Source of the DNA: Octopus vulgaris
Taxonomy: Eukaryota
Length of the DNA stretch: 64,000 nucleotides
NCBI GenBank assembly: GCA_951406725.2
Contig: OX597824.1
Location: 29,264,001 to 29,328,000, forward strand
Reading direction: 5' to 3'
Shown here: piece by piece, positions 7,901-58,886 of the stretch
Position numbering within the stretch: position 1 is the first letter of the stretch
Layout of the letters: every line of letters starts with the position of its first letter
Notes under the pieces: model-generated
Database searches by the model: none
What the model saw: only the letters and a program-made list of their open reading frames with translations
Told to the model about the DNA's origin: nothing
Program-made: the position numbers and the translations under genes

Positions 7901-8720
7901 CGTTTGTCTTAATTTATAGGAGGAATTTGATCATATAAAAACCTTAAATAGTCTTGGCTATTAATTCTCCTATGAAGGGAAGCCATTAGACCGGCTGTTT
8001 CCAAGATATAAAACCCCCAGCTAATCACAGATCCTCTTCCATATGTAACAGCTGGAAGAAGGCAGTCTGGACCAAATACTTCTCTTGGCTGTCTCCACAC
8101 ATATACTCGGGTATATGTCCGAGGAAATAACATTCATCCACTTCTCTAGAGACCAATTCTGTATGTTTTTACTCCACTCTAAACGCTTTGCAACGTTTGT
8201 TTTTGAAAGTAATGGTTTTCTGATTGCAGCCCTCCTGTGAAATCCGGATTTGTGCAACTCCCGGCGAACAGTTTTTGTGAAAACTGGCTTCTCAAGGTGA
8301 TCATTAAGCTCTGCAGTGATTTTGAGAGCTGTACTTTTGTGATCCTTTCTAAACAATTTGCAAAAGAATCCGACGGTCCCTTTCTGAAAGTGTTGGTTTT
8401 CTTCCGGAGTTTGTTTCGACGAGAAGGTTTTTCCCTCTTTCTCAAAAGCTATCATTACTTTTCGGCTGTTTTTGTTACACTAGCGACTGCGATACGAGCA
8501 CTAATAATCTGACCTCTTTGAAAGTCCGACAGATCTGCCATTTTAATGAATTTTATTTACCTTTTTCTGATGATATCTGAAAAGAAACAGCAATTTTTGT
8601 AAAACATTAAACAACACTAATAATAAAACAAAAAACATAAAAATAAACAAGCTTTTGACGGTTCTATAGATATTTCAAAATTATGATACTAGGTATTACC
8701 ATTATTTTGTTCAACCCCTG
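7898..8720 (-). mobile_element. Tc1-family DNA transposon, 3'-truncated, transposase pseudogene
   Basis: TA + left TIR CAGGGGTTGAACAAAATAATGG starting at 8720; ATG at 8541 (MADLSDFQRGQII); TVRRELHKSGFHRRAAIRKPLLSKTNVAKRLEWSK..W..VISSD and VWRQP..PDCLLPAVTYGRGSVISWG are classic Tc1 motifs. Stops and frameshifts are present. Confidence 0.93.
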
Positions 8721-19339: not shown

Positions 19340-22300
19340 AAATCGATTTTCCATCGAACCCTTTCTATTACTTAACTGCTACTTATTTTATCGACCCCGA
19401 AAGGATGAAAGGTAAAGTCGACCAAAGCGGAATTTTAATCCAGAATGTAAAGACGAACGAAATGTTATTAAGCATTTTGTTCGATGTGTTATAGATTCTG
19501 CCAGCTTACCCACATCCAAAATACCAAGCAACATCAAACACTGAAATAAGGTAGCGAGCTGGCAGAATCATTAGCACGCCAGGTAAAATGCTTAGCGGTA
19601 TTTTGACCGTTTTTATGTTCCGAGTTCAAATTTCACCGAGGTCTACTTTATTTTTTTAATCCTTTCAGAATCGATCAAATAAGTACTAGTTGAGCGCTAG
19701 GATCGATGTAATTGATATAGCCCTCCCCCGAAGTTGTTGGTCTTGTGCCAAATTTGAAATCAATATGAAATATTGAAATATTGGTTTCAAACTTTGGCAC
19801 AAGCCCATCATTTGTGGGGAAGAAGTGAGTAGACCTTAGTGCATAAATGGTACTTATTTTATTGACCCGGCAAATATAAGGAGCAAAGTCGATCTCGGCG
19901 TAATATGAACTCAGAATGTAAAGACGGACGAAATACCGCTAACGAATTTGCCAACTTGCTGCCTTAAAACATTGACATATTAATGAGTAGTATGTACGAA
20001 TATCTAACAGAAATTCATATTTGCGGTGAAGTAGACGATTAGTAAGGTAGTGAAATTGTAGAATCTTTGACCGATCACAAAGGAAAAATGCAGTATTCTG
20101 TTCTGCTTTTTACGTTCAAAATTCATCGAAGTGAACCTTGACTTTCATTCCTTCGGGTTGTTAAAATAAAGAACCTGTCAAATCCTAGAGTCAATGTAAA
20201 CGACTAAGTTCCTTCTCTTTAAAATGCTGGTCTTGAATCCCGCAATCGAAAAGCACCTCATTCAGGGAGGATGTTGCAATCTCAGTCACTTCTGCAGAGG
20301 GAGAACTGTGATCTAGATCACCTACCCGCCATGGGAGCAACGTAACCGAGCTTATTCATACGAATACTAGAGCTCGAGGAGAAATAAAAAATAGTAAGCT
20401 ATTACTTTAAAATACTGCTGTTGTTGTTCTTGATGTTTAGCTAAGATTGTGGGTTCAAATACCGCCGAGGTCGACTTTGCCTTTCATCTTCTAGGAGTTG
20501 ATTAAATAAGTACCAGTTGGACAACGGGGTCAATGTAATCGACATACCCACTTCCCAAAATTTTTTGGCCTTGTGCAAAAAATTTGAAATCAATATTTAG
20601 CTAAGATTAAGGCGATGAGCGTACAGAATCCTTAGGACGCCAGGCGAAGTGCTTGGCGGCATTTCGTCCGTCTTTACGTTCTAAGTTCAAATTCCGGTGT
20701 GTTCAGCTTTGACTTTCATGCTTCCGTGGTCGATAAATAAGTACCAGCTGAGCACTTGGTCGGTGTAATCGACTTACCCGGCCACCCGGAATTGCTGGTC
20801 TTATGCCAAAATTTGAAACCAAAGCTCGCAGAATCGTTAGCACGCCGGATAAAATGCTTATCAGCATTTCATTCGACTTTGCCTTCTGAGTTCACATTCT
20901 CCCGTCGACTTTGCTATTCATCCATTCGGAGTCGATAAATACGCGCCAACTGAACACTGGGGTCGATTTATTCGACGCACCCTTTCACCAAAGTTACTGG
21001 TCTTATGCCAAAATTTGAAACTAATATTATGATCTATGCCATTGGTTCCCAACTATTTCAAAATGGTTCCCAAAATGGGTTCCCAACCCATTTATTTCAA
21101 TGAGCTTTCCCACGGTCCCCTTTCAATATGCTTATCCCTTTATATATATATATATATATTTGAAATTTTGAATTTAGTTCACGCCCCCCCGCCTCCCAGT
21201 ACTACTAGCGGGATCGTTACAGCACCGGACAAAATGCTTAGCGGTATTTCGTCCGTCTTTAGGTTTCTATGTTCAAATTCAGCCGCGGTCAACTTTGACT
21301 TTCATCTTTTCGGTGTCGATAACATAAGTACCAGTTAAATACTGAGGTCAATGAAATTGATTAGCTTTCACCTTCAAATTGCTCCCTTGTGACAAAATTT
21401 AAAATTTAATATTTATCCAAGTTTAAGCGGATTTATAACCGAAAGCTTTCCAAATTTATACTTCTGGTCTTATAAGACAGTTTAATTGAAGGGATATTTG
21501 GCTTATATTTCTAGCATGTTAAACGACTACATTAATCTTTTCAGACTTCGGTACAAACCAGAAATATCTTAGTATGTATGTACAATATCTTTTATCTACG
21601 ATTGTATATAAAGATTTACGGAGATGTACTCGCATAGCAAGTGATTTGATCTGAGATCGTGTGCTGGAACGAAAACAATTGCAGCGTGGAAGGTGTTTGT
21701 AAGCCATTTAAGAAACACACAAAAGCCGTTCGATTCACTTCAGCATTTAAGTTTAATTTATCAAAATATTTTCGTCGCTAAAATCCGCGATCTGTTCACT
21801 GACAAAAATCCGTGCTAAGAATTTACACAATAATTCTGTCAGTCGACATGTTATTATTAAATTAATTACCCACCAACACCATTGCCACAATTATAATCAA
21901 GATAACAACAATAATCCTTTCTGCTATAGGTATAGGTTCTGAAAATTTCTGAGAAGGGGTCTAGTAGGTTACATTGATCTCAGTACTCAAATGGTTTCTA
22001 TTTCATATTTCATCGATCCCTGAAATGATGAAAGTAGAGTCAACATGACCTCGGCGGAATTTGAACTCAGAATGTAAAGATGGACAAAATACCGCTCAGC
22101 ATTTCATCCGGCGTCGCTCGACGCCTTAGGCAACAATTATATCATTTCTAATATAGTCACAAGGTCTGAAATATTAGTGGTGAGGCCTAATCAATGACTT
22201 AGACCTCGGTACCCAACTGATTTTTATTTCCTATTTTATCGACCCGGAAAAGATGAAAGGCAAAGCCGACCTCGGCGGAATTTCAACTTAGAACGTAATG

Positions 22301-22830
22301 ACGGACAAAATGCCACGAAGCATTTTGTCCGGTGTCTTAACCATTCTACCAGCTCACCACCTTAAACAAAAATAATATCGGTTTCAAATTAAATAACAAT
22401 AATGTCCTTTCTATTATAGACACAAGGAATGGAATTTCTTGGAGTAAGGGTTTGTCAACCCCGGTGCTCAGCAGGTATTTCCACTATCAACTTCGGAAGA
22501 ATGTAAAGCAAAATCGAACTTGATGGAATTTGAGCTACAGTATAAAGACGGACCAAACGCTTCTAAGAATTTCGTCCGGTTTATTAGCGATTCTACCATC
22601 TCGCCACCTTAAATGACAGTAGTATCGGCTTCAAATTTTGGCGCAAGACCAGCAATTTTGGGTGGCAGTTAAATCTGTTATATCGACTCCAGTACTCAGT
22701 TGGTACTCATTTAATCGACCCTTAAATGATGAAAGTGAAAGTCGACCTCGGCGGAATTTTAACTCGAACGCAAAAGTACTGGAGTCGACATACTAGAGTT
22801 AACTCTCACCCAAAATTGCTGGAATTATCC
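19340..22830. mobile_element. Dense cluster of >10 diverged SINE A copies and fragments in both orientations
   Basis: Repeated GTTCAAAT..GCCGAGGTCGACTT or its reverse complement, with tails CTTGTGCCAAAATTTGAAA, at ~19400, 19550, 19860, 20100, 20450, 20610, 20825, 21210, 22020, 22240, 22500 and 22710. Confidence 0.85.
21757..21806 (-). ncRNA. Candidate type I hammerhead ribozyme with G3-C8 core
   Basis: On the - strand: UUUGUCA-GUGAACA-GA-UCGC(GGAUUUUA)GCGAC-GAAA-AUAU-UU-UGAUAAA. Stem I 7 bp, stem II UCGC/GCGA, palindromic AAAUAUUU in place of stem III. Confidence 0.6.
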
Positions 22831-23894
22831 AATAATTTTTTTTTTTTTTTTGCTAGTTTATTTTGTCTCTTGTCTTCTCTACTGGTGCTGTATGAACATT
22901 TAATGTGGTTTTTAGAGTCAAATTTGGGCTGCTAATTCCAGTGCGGTGGTATCTCTTAGATACCCTAAATTATAATTTTAATATATATATATATATCTAC
23001 ATACATACATTCATACACATACATACATACATACATACATACATACATACATACATACATACATACATACATACGTGTGTGTGCGTGCGTGCGCGCGCTC
23101 TTGCGCCTCTTTTTGAGTGAGAGTAATGTTTCGACAGATTTACACCAGTGACTGCTGTTCTTTTCCCTTCACCATTCCTCGTAGACTTACAACAAAAGCT
23201 CCTGTCACGCTCTTTCTAGCTCTTCGTCCTCTCGCTCAATTATTTATCATCAACCACTTCCTCTCATCTTTAGCCCTTTCTCTGTCCTACTCCACCTATC
23301 TCTGTATCTGTCTGTCTGTCTGTCTGTCTGTCTGTATGTCTCTCTCTCTAAATACCTGTTTCATTAAATATCTATTTGTCTGTCTGTCTCTTTGTCTCTC
23401 AATCTTTCTGTCTGTCTGTCTGTTTGTCACTCTGAATTTCTTATGTTCTTTCTATATAATACCATTTTTTTTCTTCTCCTCATCATCGTTTCCAAAGCAT
23501 TTCCTATCTTACTTCTTTTCTGTCTGCGTCTCTCTCTCTCTTTCTCTCTCCCCACATCCCCCCTTTCTCTGTCTCTGTCTCACTCTCTCTCCCCTCTCAC
23601 TCCCCTTCTCTCTCATCTTTTCTCCCTCTTTCTCAGGGTCTTCCTCTCGTGATGTCCGTCCCCGTATATCTATTCTTTTCTTTCGCCGTCTTTTCTCCAT
23701 TATCAGCATTTCTATCTATCATCCATTATATCTACCTCTCATATACTCTATTAACAATATACTTCGTGTTTCGGCTGTTGTTTCAGCTATCTTTCAAAAT
23801 TATCATCATCATTGTCATCGTTGTCGTCGTCATCATCATCATTATCATCATCATTATTTTCCTTACCACCACGTTTTTCTTCTTCTCCCTCTCC

Positions 23895-23997
23895 CTCTTC
23901 TTCTTCTTCTTCTTCTTCTTCTTCTTCTTCTTCTTCTTCTTCTTCTTCTTCTTCTTCTTCTTCTTCTTCTTCTTCTTCTTCTTCTTCTTCTTCTTCT
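23895..23997. repeat. Long pure (CTT)n tract in a pyrimidine-rich zone
   Basis: Direct reading; yields the poly-L/F/S/E/R pseudo-ORFs. Confidence 0.97.
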
Positions 23998-24291
23998 TTC
24001 TTCTCCTCCCTCTTCTTCTCTATCTCCTTCTCCTTTCTTTTTTTGGTTTGTAATTTGTAAAACATTCTCTGCATTTTCTTCTGTTTTATTCACTTCACAT
24101 ATGATCATATACATACATACATACACAGATATATATACCTATATAATATATATATATATATTCTTTTGCTTTATTTTATTTTTATTTATCTCTATTTTAT
24201 TTAGCACACTTGCATTTATATACATACACATACATACATATATATATATTTAATTATTTATATATATATTTATTTATATTTATATATTTAT

Positions 24292-24328
<37 letters not shown>

Positions 24329-25659
24329 CATGTGATTGTTTACATACATATATATATATATTATATATTATATTTATACAAAAGCATGTGTATGTGTACA
24401 TACGCAAGCATGCGTATACTCATGCATACATACATGTATGAATGTAAAAGTATGCATGTATATTTTGGCACCCCCCCCCACCGCACCGATATTGGCTTTC
24501 GCAATTATTCTTTCCTACTTTTATATTCAACAAAGTTTTTAGCTTTGCTTAGTATTTTGGTCATTGGTTTAGAATAAACACATTTTCCCCTCTATCTTGC
24601 GATGATACGTCTTGTACTATCGTCTGGTTTTGTCTAGTATTTCCACCATTTCTATTTACCTTTATAATATTCTGTCATTCTCTCCTCTCTTTCTCTCGGT
24701 TTCTTTCTTTCTCTCTCTCTCTCTCTTTTTCTTTCTTCTTCCATCTATTTATCTTCCCCTGGCTGTTTCTTCTTTTCTTATACATCGGGTATTTATTAAC
24801 TGACGGCATAAAGAGAAGAAATAAGTTTATTTCCCTCTGGTGGGTTCCATTCTTATCGTTACTCCTTCGTAATTCTGAACAATATCGATTTAGAATCAAG
24901 AATATCGGAAGTTCTAGTTGCTATAATAACTAACAACAATGTAGAACTGTTCTGGATGAGCGCGAACACAATAAATGCTAAGGGACCTTGTCCACGAATA
25001 AGGAAGCGACAAAGGACATATAAAAACAAATACATCTATGAACAAACTACGTTATTGACAACTTCAGAATATTCTTATTTACATTTTTTTATGTTCTTTT
25101 ACCATTCTTTTCTTTGTTTCTTTCTTACATACTTTTCCCTTCTAAGAGCAGGCAATTAATTGTTAGTCAAAAATGTGAATTTATAACCACCAAGAGAAAG
25201 TAAAGAAAAGAATACGAAGATAGAAGAAAAAATAGAAAGGAAGGAAGAGACAGATATAACGTTTACGATTTATATTCTTTTTATTAAAAAAAAAAATTGG
25301 GATAAATAAATGAATAAATAAATAAATAAATGCATTGGAGTCTTCAAAAAAAGACTTCGTTCGTTTCATTTTGACGTTTTGTTAAGAATATCATTATTGC
25401 TTGCTTGAATTCGTCGATTGATTACCGATACATGGAAAATGATGACCGACCGCGTTATGTTTTCATTGGAGGAATACAGGTTTTTACTTGAGATGTCACA
25501 GCTCTTTACTGATGAAGGCAAACACTCGCGTAACACAACACAAAGACCAACAAATACACATATAACACTTGTATACAAAAGAAAAAAAAAAAAAAGGAAG
25601 GAAAAAAAAATAACGGATGATAAAACAAGCAGCTATGCAAACTAACAAATGAAATAATA

Positions 25660-25708
25660 ACGACAACATCGACAACAACAACAACAACAACAACAACAAC
25701 AGCAAACA

Positions 25709-25767
<59 letters not shown>

Positions 25768-26130
25768 AGTGTTAATTCATGTATGGAATGACACCTGTCA
25801 TTCAGTTCAAAGCCGTTTGTGAACAGTTTTACAGTTAGTTCCTGCTTTTAGATAAAAAAAAAAAAAAAGAACAAAATACCACACAGAAACACAGAGCAAA
25901 AAATAAAATAAAAAAGGAAAAAAAAAGACATATACAAAGGAGCGAAATACAGCAACAACACAAACAAATAACTACTACAGACACAAACAAAAAGGAAGGA
26001 AACAAAAATAAAAAAAAAAGGATAGGAAAACGAAATGTGTAGAAACTGTTTGGGTTCTGAAAGCTGTCAAAGGGAAATAATATCTCTCCCCATGATAAAC
26101 CATAGAGTAATGATGATAATAATAATAATG

Positions 26131-26188
<58 letters not shown>

Positions 26189-26193
26189 TGATG

Positions 26194-26243
<50 letters not shown>

Positions 26244-26504
26244 GATGATGATAATGATGATGATGATGATGATAATAATGGTAAAGATTTGGGGACTAAA
26301 GGGGGGGTAGCGTGGGGAGGGGGATCAGGAGTATAATAAATGGATATAACGCAGATTCTAAGAAAGTTTCAGTCGATTATATCATCATCATCATCATCGT
26401 CGTCGTCGTCGTCATCGTTCTAATATTTCCCCCTCTTCCTCCTCCATTTCCCTATCATCATCATCATCATTAATGTAAAGATACATATCAAAAATAATTG
26501 TACT

Positions 26505-26549
<45 letters not shown>

Positions 26550-26790
26550 TACTTCTACTGCTGCTGATTCTGCTATTACTGTTGTTGTTGTTGTTGAGAT
26601 GCTGTTGGTGTTATCATCATCATTACCACCTCACCACCACCACCTCACCACCACCATCATCATTATCATCATCAACAACAACGCCGCCATTATTTTGTTG
26701 CTACTGGTAGTATTTCTAGTGGTGATGGTGGTGGTGGTGGTGGTGGTGGTGTTGGTGGTGGTGGTGGTGTTGGTGATGGTGGTGGTCTAC
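25660..26790. repeat. Series of trinucleotide microsatellites (AAC, AAT, GAT, TAC, GGT)
   Basis: Direct reading. Confidence 0.9.
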
Positions 26791-27419
26791 TTAGCTTTTG
26801 TCGTCGTCATCGTAGTCCTGGGGCATTGTGGATGCTGTTGTAAACCCTGATATTGTTGTTGTTATTTCTTGTCATCTTTCCCCCACCCCACTCCCTACCA
26901 CTACCACCCCGCCATTCCCCCGGTCCCTAAACATATCTAAGGATGAGCCAGAAAGTCCACTACAACAAAACAGAATCTGCCATATCCCTTCATTTATTTA
27001 TTCCTATTTTTAAAACTATTTCATCTATATGTTTTAAAATTCTTTTAGTTGTGGCAAAATATTAAATAGAAATATTTCAATTGCTTTTATTCACATAAAA
27101 CTTAGAATCTCTGAGGTAATATTTTCCATACATAACTTCAAGACAAGTTTGTGCTTTTCTTTATTTCTGTAACTTAAACCTTTTCTGCTGACATCGAAGG
27201 ATTCCTAACTTTTTAACGATATTGGTATAATTGAGACAAACTGGCTCCACATACTAATTGTGCGATAGCAGGTTGTGTTTTAGACAACTGTTTCTGTGTA
27301 TGGACTACCTTGTGTAATCTGCTACCTGCATAAGTTTTCATTAAATAGAAGCTAGTTCAATGAGTGTGAATTGAGCGTTTGGGGAATCGTGATTGATATT
27401 TCGAAACCCACTTGCAGGT

Positions 27420-27972
27420 TTTCTACTCCAGGCACAAGGCCCGAAATTTTGGAGGAGGGGGCAGTCGATTAGATCGACACCAGTGCGTAACTGGTAGTTA
27501 ATTTATCGACTCCGAAAGGATGAAAAGCAAAGTCGACCTCAGCAGAATTTGAACTCAGAACACAAAGACAGACGAAATACCTATTTCTTTACTACTCACA
27601 ATGGGCTAAACGCAGAGGGGACAAACAAGGACAGACAAACGGATTAAGTCAATTATATCGACCCCAGTGCGTTACTGGTACTTAATTTATCGATCCCGAA
27701 AAGATGAAAGGCAAAGTCGACCTCGGCGGAATTTGAACTCAGAACGTAGCGGCAGACGAAATGCCAATTTCTTTACTACCCACAAGGGGATAAACACAGA
27801 GAGGACAAAACAAGGACAGAAAAACGGATTAATTCGATTACATCGATCCCAGTGCGTAACTGGTACTTAACTTATCGACCTCGGCGGAATTTGAACTCAG
27901 AACGTAGCGGCAGACGAAATACTGCTATGCATTTCACCCGGCGTGCTAACATTTCTGCCAGCTCGCCGCCTT
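27420..27972 (-). mobile_element. SINE A multimer (one head, three body units)
   Basis: Junctions at 27571 and 27755, 184 bp apart. The terminal unit carries the alternative tail CCAAAATTTCGGGCCTTGTGCCT. Confidence 0.9.
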
Positions 27973-28346
27973 TTCAGTCGCAGCTATTTCATTACACGCA
28001 GTTAATCATTATTTTTTAACTTTAGTACATCGGTCTCACACCTTGAAGGATATTTTAACTTATCGGTACCGAAATAATCAAATGTAAAAGTGGTTCTTGG
28101 AAGAACTCAATAATAAAAAAAAAACAACAACAGTTTCAAATTTTGGCACAGGGCCGGCAATTTTGGGTGAAAGGGTAAGCCGGTTACATCGATTCCAGTA
28201 CTCAACTGGTACTCCTTTCATCGAACCGGAAAATATGAAAAACGAAGTCGACCTCGGTGGAATTTGAACTCGGAACGTAAAGACGGACAAAATACCGATA
28301 AACATTTTGCCTGCTCGAGATACTACCAGCTCACCATCTTGATAAT

Positions 28347-28650
28347 GTTTGTTCTTTCTCGAGCCACGCCTGGCTCATAAAGGCCGGTTTCCCGGTTTCT
28401 TTAGCGTATAGGTAGGTTCCCCACCTGGACGGGACGCCAGTTAGTCGCAGGTGAGCTACAAGATGCAGGAGGAAAGAGTGAGAGAAAGTTGTGGCGAAAG
28501 AATCTGCAGGAGTTCGCCATTACCTTCTGCCGGAGCCGCGTGGAGCTTAGGTGTTTCGCTCATAAACACACACATCGCCCGGTCTGAGATTCGAACCTGC
28601 GATCCCTCGACTGCGAGTCCGCTGCTCTAACCACTAGGCCATGTGCCTCC
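28347..28650 (-). mobile_element. SINE C head with V-domain-like tail, TSD-flanked
   Basis: Head GGAGGCACATGGCCTAGTGGTTAGAGCAGCGGACTCGCAG..GGTTCGAATCTC; CCTGCGACTAACTGGCGTCCCGTCCAGG; imperfect TSD CACC(A/G)TCTT(G/A)ATAAT at 28332-28346 and 28650-28664. Confidence 0.85.
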
Positions 28651-28844
28651 ACCGTCTTAATAATAATCCTTGCAAATACATGCACAAGGCCTGCAATTTG
28701 TGGGATCGGGGAATAGTTGATCACATCGAACCCAGTACATCTCGAAAGGATGAAAGGTGAAGTCGACCACGGACGAAATGCCGCTAAGCTCTCTGCCAGC
28801 TCGCCGCCTTAATAATAATAATGATGATGATTTCAAATTAAGTT

Positions 28845-29430
28845 AAGGCGGCGAGCTGGCAGAAACGTTAGCACGCCGGGCGAAATGCGTAGCCGTATTT
28901 CGTCTGCCGTTACGTTCTAAGTTCAAATTCCGCCGAGGTCGACTTTGCCTTTCATCCTTTCGGGGTCGATAAATTAAATACTAGTTACGCACTGGGGTCG
29001 ATGTAATCAACTTAATCTGTTTGTCTGTCCTTGTTTGTCCCTTCTGTGTTTAGCCCCTTCTGGGTAGTAAAGAATATTTCGTCTGCCGCTACGTTCTGAG
29101 TTCAAATTCTGCCGAGGTCGACTTTGCCTTTCATCATTTCGAGGTCGATTAAATAAGTTCCATTTACGCACTGGGGTCCATATAATCGACTTAATCCGTT
29201 TGTCTGTCCTTGTTTGTCCTCTCAGTGTTTATCCCCTTGTGGGCAGTAAAGAAATGGGTACTTAGTCTATCTTCATGTTCTGAGTTGAAATTCTGCCGAG
29301 GTCGATTTTGCATTTCATCCTTTCGGGGTCGATAAATTAAGTACCAGTGAAACACTGGGGTCGATGTAATCGACTAGACCACTCGTCCAAAATTTCAGGT
29401 TTTGTGCCTATTGAAGAAAGGATTATTATT
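28845..29430 (+). mobile_element. SINE A trimer
   Basis: Head at 28845, units restarting at ~29075 and ~29257. The last unit is more diverged and has the alternative tail. Confidence 0.9.
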
Positions 29431-29439
29431 ACTCTTAAT

Positions 29440-29950
29440 TAAGGCGGCGAACTGGCAAAATCGTTAGCATGCCGGGCTAAATACTTAGCGGTATTTGCCC
29501 GTCGCTACGTTCTGAGTTCAATACATCCCCTCCTCCAAAATGTTGACCTTGAGGCAAAATTTGAAACCATTATTACTACTATTATTTCAAGCGGTGAGTT
29601 GACAGAATCGTTAGCATGCCGGACGAAATGTTTAACGACATTTTGCCCGTCGCTCCGTTCTGTGTTCAAATTCCGCCAAGGTCGACTTTGCCCTTTATTC
29701 TTTCGGGGTCGATAAATTAAGTACCAGTTGAACACTAAAGCCAATGTAGTCGTTGTTACATTCTGAATTCAACACATCACCTCCTCAAAAATGCTGCCCT
29801 TGTGGCAAAATTTGAAACCATTATTATTCCTATTAGTGAAAGCAACGAGCTGACAGAACCGTTAGTGCTCCGGACAAAATGCTTAGTGAAATTTCAACCG
29901 TATTTACGGCCTCCTCCAAAATTTCAGACCCTGTGCATATAATAGAAAGG
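29440..29950 (+). mobile_element. Further SINE A copies and fragments
   Basis: Heads at ~29441, ~29590 and ~29840, with internal deletions. Confidence 0.8.
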
Positions 29951-30002
29951 ATCATCATCAGCAGCAGCATCAGTATTGTTAATAACAGCAGCCATTCAAG
30001 AA

Positions 30003-30082
30003 TTTGGACCTGGAGATCTCCATTTCCAGCGACTTCGAGGGCCACCTCCTAGTGGTGTCTAACGTCAACGAAGAGCCCTCGA
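30003..30082 (+). ncRNA. Candidate HDV-like ribozyme fold lacking P4
   Basis: P1 (T)TTGGAC/GTCTAA(C); J1/2 hairpin CTGGAGAT(CTCC)ATTTCCAG; P2 TCGAGGGCC/G(A)GCCCTCGA; P3 ACC/GGT; L3 TCCTAGT; GTCAA then CGAA (catalytic C equivalent at 30069). Confidence 0.62.
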
Positions 30083-30176
30083 CTACAACAAGACGACCAA
30101 AGTTCTTTTTTTCCAAGGTCTGAGGTCTTCTGCCTCTAAGCCCTAGACTATCACCTAATCACCCTTACCCATCTTA

Positions 30177-30189
30177 ACAACAACAACAA

Positions 30190-30221
<32 letters not shown>

Positions 30222-30270
30222 GCAGCAGTAGCAGTAGTAGTAGTAGTAGTAGTAGCAGCAGTGGTAGTAG
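30177..30270. repeat. (AAC)n(AGC)n(AGT)n microsatellite
   Basis: Direct reading. Confidence 0.9.
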
Positions 30271-30857
30271 TACATTTCTGCGGCCCCTAAACTGACAAGT
30301 TAGTAACAATAATAATACTGATATATTAGTGTCAGCTGTAGATGTAAAAAAAATGTTGAAAATAAATAAAAGTGAGACCAACAGGTGTAGCGAATGTTTT
30401 ATCTCTAAAGGGAAATTAGTCTTGGTTGGCAGCAAAAAGTGTAACGTAGAAAGAATTTGGAAGTGTATAAGAATTCTGCAGAAATGTCCATGGTTTGTTT
30501 CTTTTAGAAGATTTCGTTTTCGTATGTTTCTGAAACGAAATGTTCTGAATTCCAAATTATTTATTTTACTTAAAAACTTTAATGGTAAACATGAATTTAG
30601 ATGAAATGTTTTATGTTTTTCTCACAAAGATTGCCAGCTGTCTACAGGACGATGGCAGACTCAACAGAACACCTGCCAAAATATCATTTGAATTGAAGCA
30701 ACTTCCTTTTTTTTACGTTCCCAGTTCGCTTACTACAATAGCCTGCTGTAAGTTTTTCAATCTCGAGGGGTTCTATAAAAACTATTTGATTGTCATGTCG
30801 GCTGCCAAGATGGTTGGATTTCTCTTCTATGCTCGCAAAGTTCTTACACCTCTCTCT

Positions 30858-31245
30858 GTGGAGGCGCAATGGCCCAGTGGTTAGGGCAGCGGACTCGCGG
30901 TCATAGGATCGCGGTTTCGATTCCCAGACCAGGCGTTGTGAGTGTTTATTGAGCGAAAACACCTAAAGCTCCACGAGGCTCCGGCAGAGGATGGTGGTGA
31001 TCCCTGCTGTACTCTTTCACCACAACTTTCTCTCACTCTTACTTCCTGTTTCTGTTGTACCTGTATTTCAAAGGGCCGGCCTTGTCACTCTCTGTGTCAC
31101 GCTGAATATCCCCGAGAACTACGTTAAGGGTACACATGTCTGTGGAGTGCTCAGCCACTTACACGTTAATTTCACGAGCAGGCTGTTCCGTTGATTCGGA
31201 TCAACCGGAACCCTCGTCATCGTAACCGACGGAGTGCTTCCATCC
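30858..31245 (+). mobile_element. SINE C, full length, tail type X, 12-bp TSD
   Basis: A-box TGGCCCAGTGG, B-box GTTTCGATTCC; TSD ACACCTCTCTCT at 30846-30857 and 31246-31257. Confidence 0.92.
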
Positions 31246-31860
31246 ACACCTCTCTCTATAAGGCCACCATTCATCCTTGCGTTGAATATTGGTTTCAAAT
31301 TTTGGCACAAGGCCAGCAGTTTCGAGGAAGGGGCTAATTCGATTACATCGACCCCAAATAATCGGGACACTCAAGCAAACGGTACTGAGAAACACTGTAA
31401 AAGACTGTTCTTAATGTATCAGGAGAATTTGTATTAATTCTCCTTAAAATAAAGAAACTTTCTACTTTATCTGAAATAGATCATTACTTCTCAAAATACA
31501 ATACCCAGCTAGCAAAATCGTTAATATGTTTGACAAAATGCTTAGTGGTATTTAGTTCGTCTCTAGGTCCTGAGTTCGAATTCCGCCGGTGTAGACTTGA
31601 CCTTTAATTTTTCAAATACCCAGTCGAGTACTTTTTTGATGTAATCGACTAGGTGCCGCTCCTAAAATATTTCAGGCCCTGTGTGTGTTGTAGAAAGAAT
31701 TATTTTATTTTACTGCATTTAGAGTACCTATGGTTCATTATCTTCTATCTTTTCTCTTTTTATCATTTACTTGTTTCAGTCATTAGACTGTGACCATAGT
31801 GGTGCATCGCCTTGATGAGTTTTAGTCAAAGGAATCGATCCCCAGGACTTATACATATAC

Positions 31861-31957
<97 letters not shown>

Positions 31958-32269
31958 TTATATAGCTAGCTAGTTAGATAGATAGCACACACACACCCAT
32001 GTATATATATATACGACGGGTTTCAGTTACCGGGTACCGAATCGATTCATGGGGTTTTAGTGGATCCAAAGGTTTAATAGAACGCACTAGTCCTGGGTAC
32101 CACACAGTGGCGCTGATTTCGGAACCATACTGCTGGAAAGCAAACTTCTTACCACACAGCCATGCCTGCGCCTATATCAGGTTAATGAAACTTGTTCTTT
32201 ATTTAAATTATACCCTTAATTCTTCCTATTTCTCTCATTTTTACTATATTCAGAATATTAATAATGATA

Positions 32270-32497
32270 TTCTTTTCTACTCTAGGCACAAGGCCCGAAA
32301 TTTTTTGAGGAGGGGGCCAGTCGATTAGATCGACCCCAGCACGCCACTGGTACTTAATTTATCGACCCCGAAAGGATGAAAGGCAAAGTCGACCTCGGCG
32401 GAATTTGAACTCAGAACGTAGCGACGGGCGAAATACCGCGAAGCATTTCGCCCGGGGTGCTAACGTCTCTGCCAGCTCGCCGCCTTTAGCCGCCTTA
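32270..32497 (-). mobile_element. Young SINE A monomer, alternative tail, TSD-flanked
   Basis: AATATTAAT(A/G)ATGATA on both sides. Confidence 0.9.
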
Positions 32498-32897
32498 ATA
32501 TTAATGATGATACTGATTTATAAAGGTGGGGTTAATGAGTTTTATAAAGTATTGTCGTAACGTAAAATCCGATGATCAGATTTCCGGGGAATTTAGTTAT
32601 CCGGCAACCGTACGGTCCCAGTGCTGCAGAAGTTTATTGTATTGAGCAATACTGGAAGCAATACTATAAAAGGGTATACAGCACAATGGTTTCGAATCTT
32701 CATGGTGACTGCTTAACTTCATTCACATTTAAACTGGAATAAGGGAGAAGTGTCGGGTAAATAAAACGATCAAGCGATTCGGCCCCCTTCTCCATGAGTC
32801 AAAACCGAATCCATCAGACATTATGACACGCTATGTATATTGGTCGATCACGTGATCACGTCATAAACGCAAATGTATATATATATATATATATATG

Positions 32898-33200
32898 TGT
32901 GGAGGCACAATGGCCAGTGGTTGGGGTAGCGAACTCGCGGTCGTAGGATCGCGGTTTCGATTCCCAGACCGGGCGTTGTAAGTGTTTATTGAGCGAAAAC
33001 ACCTAAAGCTTCACGAGGCTCCGGCAGTGGCAATCCCTGCTGTACTCTTTCGCCACAACTTTCTCTCACTCTTTCTTCTGTTGGCCTGCTCACTTAACCG
33101 GCGGGGTGGCGTCATTTGAAGGCTAAAACAATGCGAAGCGCATTGTGACCAGCGATGTGTAGCAACATCTGATAGCCTGGTCGGTCTCGTGATCACGTGA
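32898..33200 (+). mobile_element. SINE C, tail type Y
   Basis: Same head and body as 30858 up to CTTTCTCTCACTCTT, then GGCGTCATTTGAAGGCTAAAACAATGCG...GTGATCACGTGA. Confidence 0.9.
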
Positions 33201-33529
33201 TATATGTATGTATATAGATAGATAGATAAGACTTACTTGGAAGAGGATGCGTGGCGTTCAATCATATAATAATACAAATATAAATAATATATATTTATAT
33301 AGTGTCTTTGTATGTGTGCGCGTGCATGTGTGTCTCTGTGTGTGTAGAAATATGTGTATATATATAGATATGCAGGTATTCGTGCTTTATGCTTATCTAT
33401 CTACATATGGTGATAAATGGAGCAGATATGCAGAGACAGCAGGGCGAGACCGTGATAAAAAATATTATGAGTCACTTAAAAGATACTAAAATATCAAAGA
33501 CGTTCGTTCTGGTTGCGTTAAATGTGAAG

Positions 33530-33961
33530 TGTATATATTTATATGTATATATATATATTTATATATATACATATATATATACACACACACACACACATAT
33601 ATATATATACACACACACACACACGTATTCACACACAGGCGCGCGCGCGCACACACACATTCAGACATCTATGCACATACAGTCACGTTTAAGTATAAAC
33701 AGAGAAGAAACTCTCCCAACATTCTCTCTCCCTCTCTGTCGTTCTCGCATTTTATGCATGCATATGTATGTTCGTGTGAGTGCGTGTGTGTATGTGCGCG
33801 CGCGCGCGAATGCGGCTGTGTTTGCGTCAGTGTCTGTATGTGTGTCTATGTATGTATGTATGTATGTATGTATGTATGTATGTATGTATCTAACTATCTT
33901 ATATATATATATTGGTATATATATATATGGGGGGGGGGTTTCTGTCTGTGTTTGTGTATGT

Positions 33962-34000
<39 letters not shown>

Positions 34001-43055: not shown

Positions 43056-43260
43056 AATCCAAACATGAAAGCACAAAAAAACACAATAACGCGAGGACGT
43101 GGAACAAATATAGTATTATTGGACGCTCAGGAAAGAAGGAAAGAATGAGGGGTTAACGTTTCGAGCGGAGCTCTTCGTCGGAAACATCGGAGAAGGAAAG
43201 ATCCCAAAAAGGGAAGACAGAGAAAAAAAAATCGCCAATGGTACACACGCGGTCACATAT
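43051..43260 (-). mobile_element. (TA)n-associated mini-element with minimal hammerhead (43151-43185)
   Basis: GUUU-CCGACGA-A-GAGC(UCC)GCUC-GAAA-CG-UU-AACC; homologous to the 15388 copy. Confidence 0.72.
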
Positions 43261-43440
43261 GTATAATAGAAATATGTTACAAAAAGAAAATAGAAACTAC
43301 ACGAAAATAAGCGAAATGCACATTGGAAATCAAAAAAAGTAAAGGCTTTTTATGAAACGTAACGATAGAAATATGCAATTAAATGAACTGAGGGAGGAAT
43401 AAAAGTAATAAAAGTTATTATTGTGAATTGTTTAAAGAGA

Positions 43441-43485
43441 TTCAAAACATACCGGTTTCATGAATTTACTAATCATTGCTTGGAA
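43441..43485 (-). ncRNA. Candidate degenerate hammerhead with A3-U8 core
   Basis: UUCCAAGCA-AUGAUUA-GUAAAUUCAU-GAAA-CCGG-UA-UGUUUUGAA; stem I 8/9 bp, stem II weak. Confidence 0.38.
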
Positions 43486-43511
43486 ATATATGCGATGTAT
43501 TTTTACAAAGA

Positions 43512-44399
43512 GTGTACGTTTTCTGCTCATTGATTTTGAGACGTATGGTGTTTCCAATTTGACCAAGTCTTTCAGATTTGTCTTGTAACTCTAGACGCGT
43601 GTATGCGAACAAACAGATGTCGTTTGCATAATCTAAATCTTCTAGTTGAGTTGTCTTTCATTCTATACCACGTTTATATTCTTCTATCGTTCTTTACATC
43701 AACCAATTCACTGCCGATGAAAATAAGATTGGTGATAACACGCATCCTTGTTTGACTCCGGTTTTGATTTCGAATGGATCTGTCAGTCTGTTGTAGAATA
43801 TAACTTAACATTCAAAGTTTTCATCATCTTGTCTAATTTGTGTGGGAAACCATAGTGCCTGAGAATCTTCCAAATTGTCTGTCGGTGAATGCTATCGAAA
43901 GCTTCTTTTAAAATAAGCAAACAGCATGCACAAAGAGGAGTTCATGGGATTGTTCAAGTATTTGGCGAATTACAAAAATACTGTCGATAAATGATTTTTC
44001 CTTTCCTAAATCCAGCTTGCTCTTGGCGAAGTAATTGGTCAACTGCTGCTGTGATGCGCTGCAATATGATATGGGTGAATATTTTACAGGTGATTGATAA
44101 CAGAGTGATTCCTCTCCACAATTATAACAGTCTGATGCATCAACTTTCTTTGTTAATTTCACAATGAGTCCTTTTTTCCAGCTGTTCGGTATTTCCTCAT
44201 TTACTCTTTACTCTTTTACTCATTTATCTGTTCCAGTCATTTGACTGTAACCATACTGGAGCACCGCTTTTAATCGAGCACATCGACTCTAAGGCTTATT
44301 CTTTGTAAGCTTAGTACTTATTCTATCGGTCTCTTTTGCCGAACCGCTAAGTTACGGGGACGTAAACACGCCAGCATCGGTTGTCAAGCGACGTTGGGG

Positions 44400-44463
<64 letters not shown>

Positions 44464-44760
44464 GACGGGCTTCTTTCAGATTCCGTCTACCAAATCCACT
44501 CACAAGGCTTTGGTCGGCCAGAGGCTATAGTAGAAGACACTTGTTTACGGTGCCACGCAGTAGGACTGAACCCGGAACCATGTAGTTCGTAAGTAAGCTA
44601 CTTACCACACAGCCATTCTGCTTTAAGAATGTAAGCACTACTCGATCTAATCCTGATGATAGCTTTTATGACTTCATTTACCGTGATCTCTCCTGTGTTG
44701 CTTTCCAAGTCCTTATCCGCTTCTTTTATTTCGGTAGAGATTATTGTCTTTGGACGATAT
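43512..44760 (-). mobile_element. RTE-clade LINE RT pseudogene, inverted 5' segment, interrupted by SINE B
   Basis: PFEIKTGVKQGCVLSPILF...QLEDLDYANDICLF...LKINEQKT. Upstream F..KAFDSIHR..IW.ILR and IP.SW.KGLIVKL.KK.D.SDC.N motifs. Confidence 0.88.
44200..44616 (-). mobile_element. SINE B inserted in the RTE LINE
   Basis: Complete B copy with LINE-like coding sequence on both sides. Confidence 0.9.
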
Positions 44761-45265
44761 AACAGATGCTAACCATGTGATAAACCAATCGCAAATATTG
44801 ACGAATTTAACTATCAAAGCATCAAAATAACAATGGATAGAGTTTGCATTCATGAAATAAATGCAAGAATCAGCCAAGTCAACCAATCATTCGGTATCTT
44901 AAACGCAATATGGAAATCATCAATACTCAGCAAGAACACCAAATCACGATTTTACAAAAGCAACATACCTAGTATCTTCATCCATAGATCCGAATATTGG
45001 AAAACAACTAAAAGTATTGAAAAGAAATTAAAGGTGTTTCGAAATAAATGTTCACGAAAAACTTTTGAAGGTCTACTGGCCGAATGTGATCTCAAATAGC
45101 CAACTACACACCAAAGCTGATGTGAAACCAATAAGAGAAACTATTGAAGCAAGGAGATAGAAATGGCTGGGTCGAGTTTGTCGCTATAAATTGAGCTCAA
45201 TTGTCAGGATCGCTTTGCAATGGGTTTCACAAGGTAAAAGAAGACGTGGCCGATCAAAGCAAAAA
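44761..45265 (+). mobile_element. RTE-clade LINE 3' segment in forward orientation
   Basis: IDEFNY..EINARISQVNQSFGILNAIWKS..TKSRFYKSN..SEYW..F.NKC.RK and KWLGRVCR..ALQWVSQGKRRRGRS. Confidence 0.9.
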
Positions 45266-45584
45266 GGTTAACAATGGAACAAGGGGTGAGTTGGGCTCTT
45301 GAGCAAAACACTTCATTTCATATTGTTTTACTCCACTCAACGTGGGGGTGGGATGTTGGCCTGCACGCCTAGCCAGTTAAGAAGAAGTAGTTAGGGAGGA
45401 GACGCAGACTTCTTACCACACAGTCGCACCTGTGCCACACATCCCATGAATGTCTTTCAGTGATAGAAGGTAGAATGATCTTGTTGTCGCTTCAGATACC
45501 ACAATTAGATCCGAATGAATGAATGAATGAGAATGAATGAATGAGAATGAATGAATGAATGTAGATATATATATATATATATAT

Positions 45585-45880: not shown

Positions 45881-46454
45881 TTTTTTGTAATTCTCGAAAT
45901 TCTTAGTACGGAGAAGAATAAATTATTCTCATAACATTTTTTAGGTGGTTAGGAATGATTTTTTTCCAAAATTAGGCGTACGGAGTAGAACTTCAACCAT
46001 TTCGCTTGCCCATGGATTTCACTAGTTAAGATTTTTCTTCGCTCTGCTGATTTTGTAATAACCAGGTCCGACCAATGAAAATGTAATATGAATTTGTTGA
46101 GATAAATTCGTATCCCAAAGCAATTTTATGGAAAATAATTCAATTTTATCTACTTTATATACGATAACTCTAATTCATAGCAAACCTATCAAGGCGTGAT
46201 AAACACTGTTTGATACGCTAGCGCTCATTGATGAAGCCTCGGTGGGGAGACGTGTTGAGTTGCAGAGGAGAATAAAAAATATAATATTCAAGCACGAAAT
46301 TACACTGGGTAGTTCAATAGCCGATGTACATGCATGAAAGGAAAGGAAAATAATTAATAAGAGATAGTTAGATAAGAAAAAAAATAAAAAGGATTCTATC
46401 AAACTGAACAAAATAGATGCGGAATCAAAAAGAAACGTTTAGAAAAAGAGAATG

Positions 46455-48424: not shown

Positions 48425-48425
<1 letters not shown>

Positions 48426-48600
48426 GTGGAACAAATAGGGGCTGCAATAAGGGTGGAGCACTCGCAGAAAACAGCACTGCTTGGAACCGCTCGAATATTC
48501 CCGAAGGTGCTCGAAAAATAAGAAGTGTTACTTTAGTTCACTAGTAGTGAACAACTGACACTGTAGTACATCTCCAGCGTTAGAAGCTGTGCAAAGGCAA
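48425..48600 (+). mobile_element. R4/Dong-like non-LTR element, extreme 3' end
   Basis: VEHSQKTALLGTARIFPKVLEK* matches the QK..LLGTA.ILRK.L terminus of RLE elements; flanked by (AAT)n/(AAC)n. Confidence 0.8.
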
Positions 48601-48675
48601 TGATAACAACAACAACAACAACAATAATAATAATAATAATGATAATAATAATGATGATGATAACAGTAATAATAA

Positions 48676-49205
48676 AGACACGACAGAGTGCGGGCTTATA
48701 TACATTGGAAGCTATGGAGTAACAACAGAAAAAGATGGTGTAAGCACCCGCCAGAAAAGGTCACAGAAAATGAGAAAGCAACCATACTATTGTATATACC
48801 AATACACACAGATAGGGAAATTAAGGCCAATGTGCCGGATATAGAGATCAACAAGGAAAAAATGATTTTTAATCGAAGTATCAATACCAACAGATGATAA
48901 TTTTTCTCTAAAAGAAACGGCGAAACTTTCAAAATACGGAGATTTAGAAATAGAGGTAACTCGAATGTGGAGTTTAAAAACAGAAACAATTCATATCATT
49001 CTAGGCGCATTAGGTATGATCAAAAAATATTCGGACAAATATATAACAAAAACACCGGGACTAACAAGTGTTTATAGCATACGGAAAATAGCACTACGAG
49101 GCACCGCAGACATTCTACGTAAAACACTTTAAATACAGTAAAGATAAGAGCATCACAACAAACCATATCAGAAACCCACACAGCTGCGCTCGATAGTGAA
49201 GGCTT
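48676..49205 (+). mobile_element. R4/Dong-like non-LTR element, RLE endonuclease fragment (pseudogene)
   Basis: RHDRV..YIHWKL...TDREIKANVPDI..FLIEVSIP.D.N...KE..KLSKY.DL.IEV.RMW...IILGALG...KIALRGTADILRKTL. Confidence 0.88.
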
Positions 49206-50730
49206 CGAAAATTAATTAATTAAATAATCAATTAATGGGCCCAATCCCAAGTTAATCTAATGTTTGATGTAGCCAACAAAATGGGTAACATTTTGCCCTC
49301 TTTCCTGGTTCATATGTAGCTCCGATATTTCCTCAAAATAGATGACAACACGCTCACTGACAAAATGAACAGCAGATTCTTATCAATCTAGAAGATTCTT
49401 ATCAATAACCTAATTATATTTGTGACAACATTGGTTGTTTTAGTCCTATGTGAACCAGGTTCGTGTCAGTATTCTAATGGCATCGACTATAGTACAGACT
49501 CAAACAGAGAGAGCCGATTTAATACATTGTAACCATATTGCCAATAGATTTTAAAGATAAGCTTCACTTCCTTAAGACAGTTTCCTAGCTGAGAAACTGC
49601 ACAGCCGCTAAGCTTCTTTCTTCTTTCAAGAGCATTAGTCACTCATTGATTTTTCACAATTATGACGTAGAAATTTATCTCTAGATTTATTTACTGAAAC
49701 TGTGTTCAGAAAATTATGAATAATATGTCTGTATACAGTTCTATATTTAAGAGATGAGGAATTATGTACATTATTTACATTATTTATATTATTTATATTT
49801 GAGGAATATTTGTCTTCATCTTGTAAGTTATACTGCGTTTTTGACTTTGAGAAAAAATGCATGCTTTTGCAAATGTTCACTTTCTTAAATAAACGATACC
49901 TTTTCTAAATACATTAAAATATATAATCTAAACTGTATTCCAGAAAATTACCTTTGTCCTCCTTTAGCTTATAAATGATATATTTTACTGGGGCAAAATG
50001 AGTAAGACAAGATAAGTTAAATTTGCCTCTTCACTTTTCCTTAATTATTTTTGAGAAAAGACGCAAACACATCGTTATCCATCCTTAGACATAGGAAAGA
50101 TCAGAAATGCAACAAAAATTAAAAAAATATCTTGAAAGAGGATCATGGAAAAAGTACACCTATGATATTAACGAAACTTGACTAAATCCCAAAACACAAC
50201 ATAGAATATTCTCTATAGCTTCTTCACGATATGCTAAATTGGTTCTCTTCCCTATATATTGATACACCGTGAAGTTAAAAAGAAGAAAATGAAATTTGTC
50301 ATTACGTATTTTATTCCTTTAGACATAATTTTTTTCAGAACTGAATATTATCAAATAGCACATGAGTGTAGAAAACATTGACTTGGAATCCGACAAAAGA
50401 ATAGATTGTTAAACACCAAAAATTATCCAGATATTATATTAGTAACTTCAGTTGCAATCGGGTCAAACTTGAAGAACAAATTCTTGAAAACAACTAGTAT
50501 CTGTCTAACTGATTTTTTCAAACTCTTTCAACTACAACAACAACAACAACTATGCTGACCAATTTTTTTTTGTCCTAAACATGATGCATATGCTCCAAAT
50601 AATGATGCAATACTCGCCAAGTATCGGTTTCAAACAGAGTAGCAAGGAAATAACAAAAAATCAGAAATTAGTCACAATATTGTTTCACACACACACACAT
50701 ACACATACACACACACACACATACATATAA

Positions 50731-57958: not shown

Positions 57959-58283
57959 ATATATATATAATATATATAATAATTTTTAGGAGATCAGTAA
58001 GAATTTCATATTCCACTCTCCCAAACATGTCTACCATAATAGCGAGTCTTAATAGAAAAAACATTAAGTTAGCCAGGAGTAGAATGAATAGTAACAACAA
58101 AGATAGTAATTTTAATTGTAATAATAGCATTAACAATAGAAATAATAATGATAATAATAATAATAATGGTAATAATAAAAATAATATTAATAATGATGAT
58201 AACAATAATAATATTAATAATAAAACATTAATGTAAATAGTGATAATAAAAATACCAATAATGTAGGTAGTATAGATAAAAAT

Positions 58284-58886
58284 ATGGTAGGTGGGAATGA
58301 TGGTGAGAATGGATTAATAATTAGTAACCCTAATTTGAATAACAACGTGATTACTAATAATGAAAGTAATACTAATACTAATAATAATTCAAATAACAGT
58401 AATGTAAGTGAACTGGCCTTAAATAATTCCAGAACCGAATACTATCCCCCCAGTTGTAATTGTAGGATTAGATCAAAATGTCCGGTATCTGGTCGTTGTT
58501 CGGTCCAAAACGTAATTTATAAATGCACGATAATAACTTCTAACAATAGCTTTCTTTATTTCGGAGGTTCGGTGGATATTAAAAGACGTCTTAACAATCA
58601 TTTTTCCTCTTTTAGACTCAAACATAAGGCAGGTTGCACAACACTATTTAGCAAAATTTGGGAACTAAAAACAAATAATATAGTATTCAACCTAAAATGG
58701 GATATAGTTAGAAGAGCGAAACCTTATAGAAATAGTAGGGAAGGTTGTCAACTTTGTTCTATGGAAACTTATGAAATTTTAAAACATCAGAGTAATACAA
58801 ATCTGTTGAATAATCGTCTGGAGTTGGGAGGATCTTGTATACATTGCACAACCCGAACGTTTAAATACGTTAAATACAAATTGTGA
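58284..58886 (+). pseudogene. PLE GIY-YIG endonuclease ORF fragment
   Basis: CNC..KCPVSGRC..NVIYKC..YFGG..KRRLNNH..SF..LKWDI..CQLC..E..I..LLN.R.E..SCIH. Out of frame with the upstream linker ORF (58027) and no RT is present. Confidence 0.88.

Follow-up and report, generated by a model that had tools for sequence, protein, structure and literature searches.

A high-copy, probable mini-retroposon with a conserved HDV-like core in microsatellite DNA of Octopus vulgaris

The segment 29991–30187 is one decayed copy of a high-copy element of about 190 nt, which lacks an open reading frame (ORF) and lies in an AAC/AGC microsatellite. Coordinates refer to the window, that is, to the whole 64-kb stretch of Octopus vulgaris DNA analysed, which is repeat- and microsatellite-rich eukaryotic DNA; all features of the element are on the plus strand. 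The element is a mini-retroposon with a conserved HDV-like core that, as far as the literature was searched, had not been remarked upon. No description of it, or of a cephalopod SINE headed by an HDV-like ribozyme, was found among the papers listed in that search, and the element may already exist as an unclassified SINE in Repbase, Dfam, SINEBase or the Zenodo repeat library of PMC13282606. An earlier note on this DNA had recognized the right kind of element, while the helix that it placed at the cut site was wrong. The reading preferred here, tentatively and at somewhat less than an even chance, is that of a non-autonomous, SIDE-like retroposon whose HDV-type head came from the 5′ end of a LINE and would cut at the microsatellite junction; cleavage, its site, the route of transcription and the partner LINE are inferred.

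The evidence for a family comes from public sequencing runs; no second copy was found within the window by blastn or nhmmer. Part of the region 29909–30850 is present in 20 of the 24 runs listed. Contigs of four runs (X2, X3, X6 and X8, one per organism) were aligned to 29909–30185 at 80% likeness, and between 2,585 and 4,847 contigs matched in each of the four, some of them through the SINE tail that neighbours the mini-element at 29909–29952 and not through the mini-element itself. Reading frames that overlap the mini-element gave zero Pfam matches. The proposal of a multi-copy, ORF-less and ribozyme-headed short family is supported, and the sequence is not single-copy, with thousands of contigs in all four runs. 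The summed contig depth, which is not equivalent to copy number, peaks at 1.0–1.6 million in X2 and X3 and at 0.19–0.24 million in X6 and X8, and the median depth of the long pieces listed is 39–47 and 8–9, respectively. When depth is modelled as overlapping 31-mers, about 700–1,250 near-identical copies are obtained, with an upper bound of about 20,000–34,000 if the contigs do not overlap.

The ends of the element are consistent among runs. A k-mer depth model places its 5′ start at 29983–29990 in all four (relative error 0.001–0.002), and forcing the start to 30003 raises the error of the depth profile about 75- to 100-fold. Long contigs begin at 29986, 29989, 29991 or 29995, and single contigs span head to tail (for instance, 30015–30175 and 30023–30175). 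In X3, X6 and X8, the depth of the 3′ block is 0.7–0.8 of the 5′ depth in the k-mer model, so there is no excess of 3′ ends; X2 was read to 76% and its 3′ fit is poor. Upstream of 29984–29986, the loose ends are AAC/AGC repeats in all four runs (40–74 contigs per row, agreement about 0.55). These ends, taken among the matches listed, select for contigs with CAG upstream, so that target specificity is no more than suggested. At the other end, loose ends at 30175 continue for seven further bases and then into (AAC)n, also in all four runs. The window copy carries its conserved 3′ tail and (AAC)n at 30150–30187, with seven more bases before the AAC repeats in other copies, and differs from the family majority by 10 substitutions and a 7-nt deletion. 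It is followed by an AGC/AGT microsatellite (30188–30272), at the start of which lies the right-hand member of a 9-nt direct repeat. The left copy of this repeat (29984–29992) is identical to the 9-mers at 30188–30196 and 30203–30211 and is a candidate target-site duplication, an ambiguous one given the microsatellite on both flanks.

Some neighbouring repeats may be mentioned here. A unit of about 180 bp, the commonest repeat of the window with about 30 copies in it, forms tandem arrays at 27463–27880 and 28895–29375 that adjoin the mini-element. A 22-nt inverted repeat (82%; 29965–29986 and 30299–30320) surrounds the mini-element and its microsatellite; it is AT-rich and probably due to chance. 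Scans of viral contigs returned 33 matches to one 15-mer motif and none to two longer motifs, and the same motif scans gave 0 and 2 matches in metagenomes and 0 and 0 in prokaryotic genomes. These 35 viral and metagenome loci were dismissed as chance, with a likeness of only 15–27 bases and no HDV core in at least 33 that were scanned. Phage records gave zero matches to the mini-element.

The head of the element has the organization of an HDV-like ribozyme that lacks P4. Every helix that the earlier note had listed does pair in the window copy. A P1.2-like hairpin in J1/2 (30010–30029) forms 8 of 8 bp, and none of its variants in the family reaches 4%. The 5′ strand of P2 (30035–30042) forms eight contiguous pairs with its 3′ strand (30075–30082), and P3-L3-P3′ lies at 30044–30056, with 3 of 3 pairs in P3 and the loop TCCTAGT. 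In both the copy and the family majority, P2 and P3 are found in nested order, with eight and three to four pairs. The 7-nt P1′ and the single P1.1 G30064 follow at 30057–30064, and then 30065–30074, which comprises the linker that replaces P4 (5 nt when G30064 is counted) and a J4/2 that contains C30069, the candidate catalytic base. The linker and the start of J4/2 read GTCAA-CGAA. By the HDV numbering, the conserved positions of L3 are occupied by U, C and G, and position 30050 in this loop is C in the majority (94–99% of depth). P1.1 consists of C30049-G30064 plus a C.U. The earlier note had counted the single G of P1.1 as a defect, which it is not: fast cleavage tolerates one non-Watson-Crick pair in P1.1 (PMC13635239, in the part cited). 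C30069 is kept in 95–97% of depth in all four runs and is followed by an A in J4/2. More generally, the family keeps P2, P3, the U, C and G of L3, G30064 and C30069, although some sites show C>T or G>A at a level of about 3–12%.

It might be asked whether this likeness simply arose by chance in a short retroposon rich in hairpins, with no ribozyme ancestry, a reading that we regard as quite improbable. A full descriptor that allows a P4 of up to 8 nt matches only this site in the window, with a mean of 0.03 matches in shuffled windows (P2 of at least 6 pairs) and 0 in 60 shuffles with a P2 of at least 8. Similarly, a descriptor of the core that is independent of P1 (P2, P3, L3, the P1.1 G and C-G-A-A) matches only here; it is matched in 0 of 150 shuffled windows at P2 of at least 8, in 4 of 150 at P2 of at least 6, and in 6 of 20,000 shuffles of the element, counts that argue against chance. 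So does the position of the core at the 5′ end, as in LINE ribozymes, where its spacing of 7 nt to the P1.1 G is also preserved. Nevertheless, the descriptors were tuned after the sequence had been seen, and their significance is somewhat overstated. Moreover, Rfam assigns no ribozyme family to the element, either at the gathering score or at E≤10, the z-score of a non-pseudoknot fold is modest (−1.9), and one helix, the P1 of the earlier note, proved to be a by-product of decay. A looser descriptor (both P4 and J1/2 of up to 60 nt) gave an extra match at 46136 on the minus strand; its mean is 0.35 matches per shuffle and it is, therefore, not discriminating. That second site was rejected as AT-rich and at chance level, and a twister reading of the element was dropped because the order of its motifs does not fit.

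The P1 helix is where the window copy and the family part ways. The earlier note had drawn P1 between 30003–30009 and 30057–30063, with a cut at 30002/30003. In this copy only, six of the seven pairs form, with a T.C (U.C) at +1. In the family, however, 30060–30062 is GGG (G in 83–99% of depth) where the window copy has TAA. The T at 30060 accounts for at most 0.1–1.5% of depth, and TAA is nearly private to this copy, a rarity that is robust because exact matches align most easily. As the earlier note had stated for +1, position 30003 is T rather than G, in the window copy and in the family majority alike, with no other letter reaching 4%. The seven positions of this register give the majority just three Watson-Crick pairs, the others being two wobbles and two mismatches. 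Furthermore, C>T or G>A changes account for 8 of the 10 differences of the copy. Two of the three differences on which its P1 depends are of this type and turn G.U wobbles into A-U; thus, the apparent P1 is a product of decay. These letters are majorities per position, mostly unlinked, with linkage only in three short strings, and only 2–14% of the peak depth aligns at 30060, so that more divergent subfamilies could be hidden. Among the variants of the family, C>T and G>A at CpG-like positions predominate, and none of its indels reaches 4%. No compensatory changes were seen in the per-position letters of this young family. Position 30131 is split about 60:40 between C and T across the family in all four runs, which hints at two subfamilies.

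A canonical P1 at 30003–30009/30057–30063, with a consensus G at +1 and a cut at 30002/30003, is hardly credible, despite its six of seven pairs here. This P1 comes largely from C>T and G>A decay, and for the majority it is largely refuted by the T at 30003 and the rarity of the T at 30060; the consensus thus lacks the G at +1 while keeping the catalytic C. The family also begins about 12 nt further upstream, and the roughly 10 nt before the supposed cut, which had been assigned to the flanking repeat, belong to the element according to the depth profile.

If the head cuts, a different site is to be sought. With majority letters, no full 7-nt P1 exists in any register of 29950–30036. The only upstream G that has three Watson-Crick pairs at the cleavage end of P1′ is G29991, at the 5′ boundary of the family, and the G-C-C at 29991–29993 is a candidate short P1 that cannot pair in this copy. 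After these three pairs come three mismatches and one pair. Other registers (30027–30033, with four pairs and no G at the start, and a split GCC plus GAC) were no better in energy and were set aside. A matching trinucleotide near the boundary could also arise by chance, at a rough estimate of under 1 in 10. A P1 of 6–7 bp with a paired G at +1 is, therefore, found neither in the copy (six pairs, U.C) nor in the majority (three pairs). In R2 ribozymes, P1 is typically of 6–7 bp, a quarter of them having one or two mismatches at its top, one active ribozyme has a P1 of 4 nt, several do without P4, and the target sequence often supplies P1 (PMC3774820, in the part cited). The 3-bp P1 considered here is shorter than every case in the literature cited. 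The same source describes self-cleavage of Dong RNA at its junction with TAA repeats, and a J1/2 hairpin is known to speed cleavage (PMC4908430, in the part cited). On balance, active cleavage near 29991 is the preferred reading, at somewhat less than an even chance. The window copy itself is probably dead, as had been supposed, because its P1′ is mutated, which prevents a cut at 29991, and the other register has U.C at +1.

Folding adds a complication. With majority letters, P2 has a competitor for its 3′ strand in the GGGC of P1′, whose pair probability is 0.61, compared with 0.33 for P2; P1 at 29991 is given a probability of 0.0 in this fold, which cannot model pseudoknots. Within 29991–30042, the majority letters also allow the first ten bases to pair with the 5′ strand of P2, a possible inhibitory alternative fold. 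The competing GGGC/GCCC pairing is among the observations favouring the view that the element is the same retroposon with a head that is a relic, left without a P1 partner since the element was formed. This is a serious contender, only slightly less probable than the preferred reading. The uniform 5′ end would then result from the annealing of the repeat end of the cDNA to the microsatellite or from an internal promoter, such as the Pr77 of trypanosomes. In line with this, there is no 6–7 bp P1 in the majority in any register of 29950–30036, repeat sequence lies upstream in most 5′ junctions among the matches listed, and annealing between cDNA and target is known to yield uniform R2 junctions (PMC3774820, in the part cited). 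By contrast, a relic would not be expected to keep its core intact in a young and successful family, nor to have its sole three-pair G precisely at the boundary, and an active P1 of 4 nt is on record in the same source.

As for the type of element, several features argue for retroposition with the help of a LINE. A run of T (30103–30112; ten in the majority, seven in this copy) lies inside the element, and such a run would stop RNA polymerase III before the tail. No B box was found on either strand of the element at one mismatch from the usual pattern. Consequently, independence from RNA polymerase III, proposed earlier, is likely. The features of a tRNA-derived SINE (A and B boxes and no internal T run) are not those found here, with T10 inside the element. 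A hairpin at 30117–30149, which forms 10 of 10 pairs in the majority and is damaged in this copy, is likely the element recognized by the LINE. Being short, hairpin-rich and of high copy number, the element might also be taken for a DNA-level element (of the MITE or Helitron type) or for a tRNA-derived SINE, both very improbable: it has no terminal inverted repeats of its own and its (AAC)n tail is one-sided, and a SINE of that kind is at odds with the lack of a B box and of a tRNA and with the internal T10. Together, the one-sided repeat tail, the lack of terminal inverted repeats and of a B box, and the internal T10 suggest a LINE-dependent retroposon that is not transcribed by RNA polymerase III.

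The window itself offers candidate partners. Rfam gave zero matches at the gathering score in the whole window, and no tRNA genes were found in it. A Pfam scan of the 290 longest of 361 filtered reading frames gave transposon-related matches to a Tc1 transposase, reverse transcriptase (RT) pieces and GIY-YIG, the remaining matches being weak and below the cut-off. The Tc1/mariner transposase fragment is at 8024–8479 on the minus strand (PF01498, E 4e-15). The GIY-YIG match (Pfam piece 58224–58883, E 1e-4) lies in a 220-codon frame at 58224–58886 on the plus strand, likely the remnant of a Penelope-like element. The RT pieces near 43957–45096, which we take from their motifs to be of the RTE clade, belong to an RTE-like LINE at 43200–45392. 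A short repeat divides this LINE into two oppositely oriented pieces, with the RT on the minus strand to about 44207 and the 3′ end, which terminates in (AAG)n, on the plus strand, an arrangement that resembles a 5′ inversion. At 48425–48622 and 48676–49215, both on the plus strand, lie two distinct 3′ fragments of R4/Dong-like type, preceded and separated by AAT/AAC repeats. An interrupted hairpin of 14 bp and then (AAC)n close the first of them. In the second, 48676–49138 aligns with 55–63% identity to P0001, which has a zinc knuckle and a restriction-like endonuclease motif, and both are presumably of the R4/Dong clade. Thus, RTE-like and R4/Dong-like fragments are indeed both present, as had been noted, under clade names that rest on motifs we take to be diagnostic.

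The partner is probably, with modest confidence, an R4/Dong LINE. The presence of microsatellite on both sides of the element suggests a target-specific enzyme, and the R4/Dong-like fragments of the window sit in AAT/AAC tracts. In silkworm, mosquito and a snail, Dong elements are known to insert into TAA repeats as their target (PMC3812793, in the part cited), and Dong-R4 is the LINE group of O. vulgaris with the most recent insertions (1,129; PMC13282606, Table 1). An RTE partner, whether or not the head cuts, appears less plausible and on the unlikely side. The RTE-like fragment of the window ends in a similar TTAA plus trinucleotide tail, and RTE tails may consist of (CAA)n. RTE is, besides, among the four clades that yield non-autonomous elements made of 5′ and 3′ ends (PMC5786205, in the part cited). 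Nevertheless, the upstream flank is also a microsatellite in other copies, as expected from a target-specific enzyme, and the likeness to the RTE-like 3′ end does not exceed that of shuffles (141 of 300 and 319–344 of 500). In general, the comparison of the 3′ ~90 nt with LINE 3′ UTRs that had been suggested gave no likeness above shuffles for the three in the window: against two Dong-like and one RTE-like 3′ UTRs, 201–483 of 500 shuffles score as high as the tail.

What is established is the family, its boundaries and flanks, the conserved core, the hairpin and the T run. From these, the life cycle of the SIDE-like retroposon preferred here may be outlined. A source copy would be transcribed by read-through from outside. 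The P4-less core would then cut this RNA at the microsatellite junction, just before G29991, by means of a P1 reduced to three G-C pairs; the AGC target repeat may supply the first two of these. The 3′ hairpin and the AAC tail would be recognized by a protein of a LINE, most likely R4/Dong, which would bind them and reverse-transcribe the RNA of the element into another trinucleotide repeat. In its most far-reaching form, which we consider unlikely, this would be the first R4/Dong-derived family of SINE-like elements headed by a ribozyme, one reduced twice over, without P4 and with a 3-bp P1 supplied partly by the AGC target, so that an element without its own promoter, present in about a thousand microsatellites, would give a self-excising RNA only on its target.

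The closest known system is perhaps that of the R2 SIDE and R2/R1 SIDE of Drosophila (PMC3414825, in the part cited), which share the short ORF-less form, the HDV-like 5′ head, the structured 3′ end and a repeated target. Those SIDEs, however, are of about 530 bp, confined to rDNA and endowed with a full P1, and both their cleavage and their match to a LINE have been demonstrated, whereas the element described here is of about 190 nt, dispersed, modelled at about a thousand copies and has a short P1, with no LINE homology among the three LINE 3′ UTRs of the window. The 5′ ribozymes of Dong/R4-clade LINEs share the trinucleotide-repeat context, and cleavage is expected at the repeat junction (PMC3774820, PMC3812793, in the parts cited); by contrast, Dong is autonomous and targets TAA, while the mini-element is non-coding and resides in AAC/AGC repeats. 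The bipartite ORF-less derivatives of RTE, Ingi, Vingi and R2 LINEs (Bov-A, RIME and NARTc) have the same 5′ plus 3′ architecture, independent of RNA polymerase III (PMC5786205), and the cited part of that source, from 2018, lists no R4-derived case. Finally, the P4-less ribozymes of silkmoth R2 and abalone, drz-Mtgn and theta have the same 5-nt linker, P3/L3 and C-R-A motif, although as a rule their P1 is of 6–7 bp, unlike that of the mini-element (PMC3774820, PMC10879173, in the parts cited). The loss of P4 is already known from silkmoth R2, abalone and phage forms in the same sources, and is not new even in molluscs. The element resembles a SIDE or bipartite LINE in its workings but is not classed here as either, because its tail matches none of the three LINE 3′ UTRs of the window, and its head is not classed as a canonical HDV-like ribozyme because no adequate P1 was found.

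These observations bear on several questions. A helix seen in a single decayed copy can have arisen through the decay itself. Non-autonomous retroposons headed by ribozymes are known from few clades, namely R2, RTE, Ingi and Vingi, and it has been asked whether this bias reflects sampling or mechanism (PMC5786205, in the part cited); a family in microsatellites would allow this question to be tested for R4/Dong. A dispersed family of high copy number would also make available a naturally occurring template of very small size for target-primed insertion. Should the young sequence prove to cleave with a P1 of 3 bp, the structural minimum of HDV-like ribozymes would shift, and standard descriptors would miss such families. 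If it does not cleave, a SINE-like element would be amplifying with neither an RNA polymerase III promoter nor a working ribozyme.
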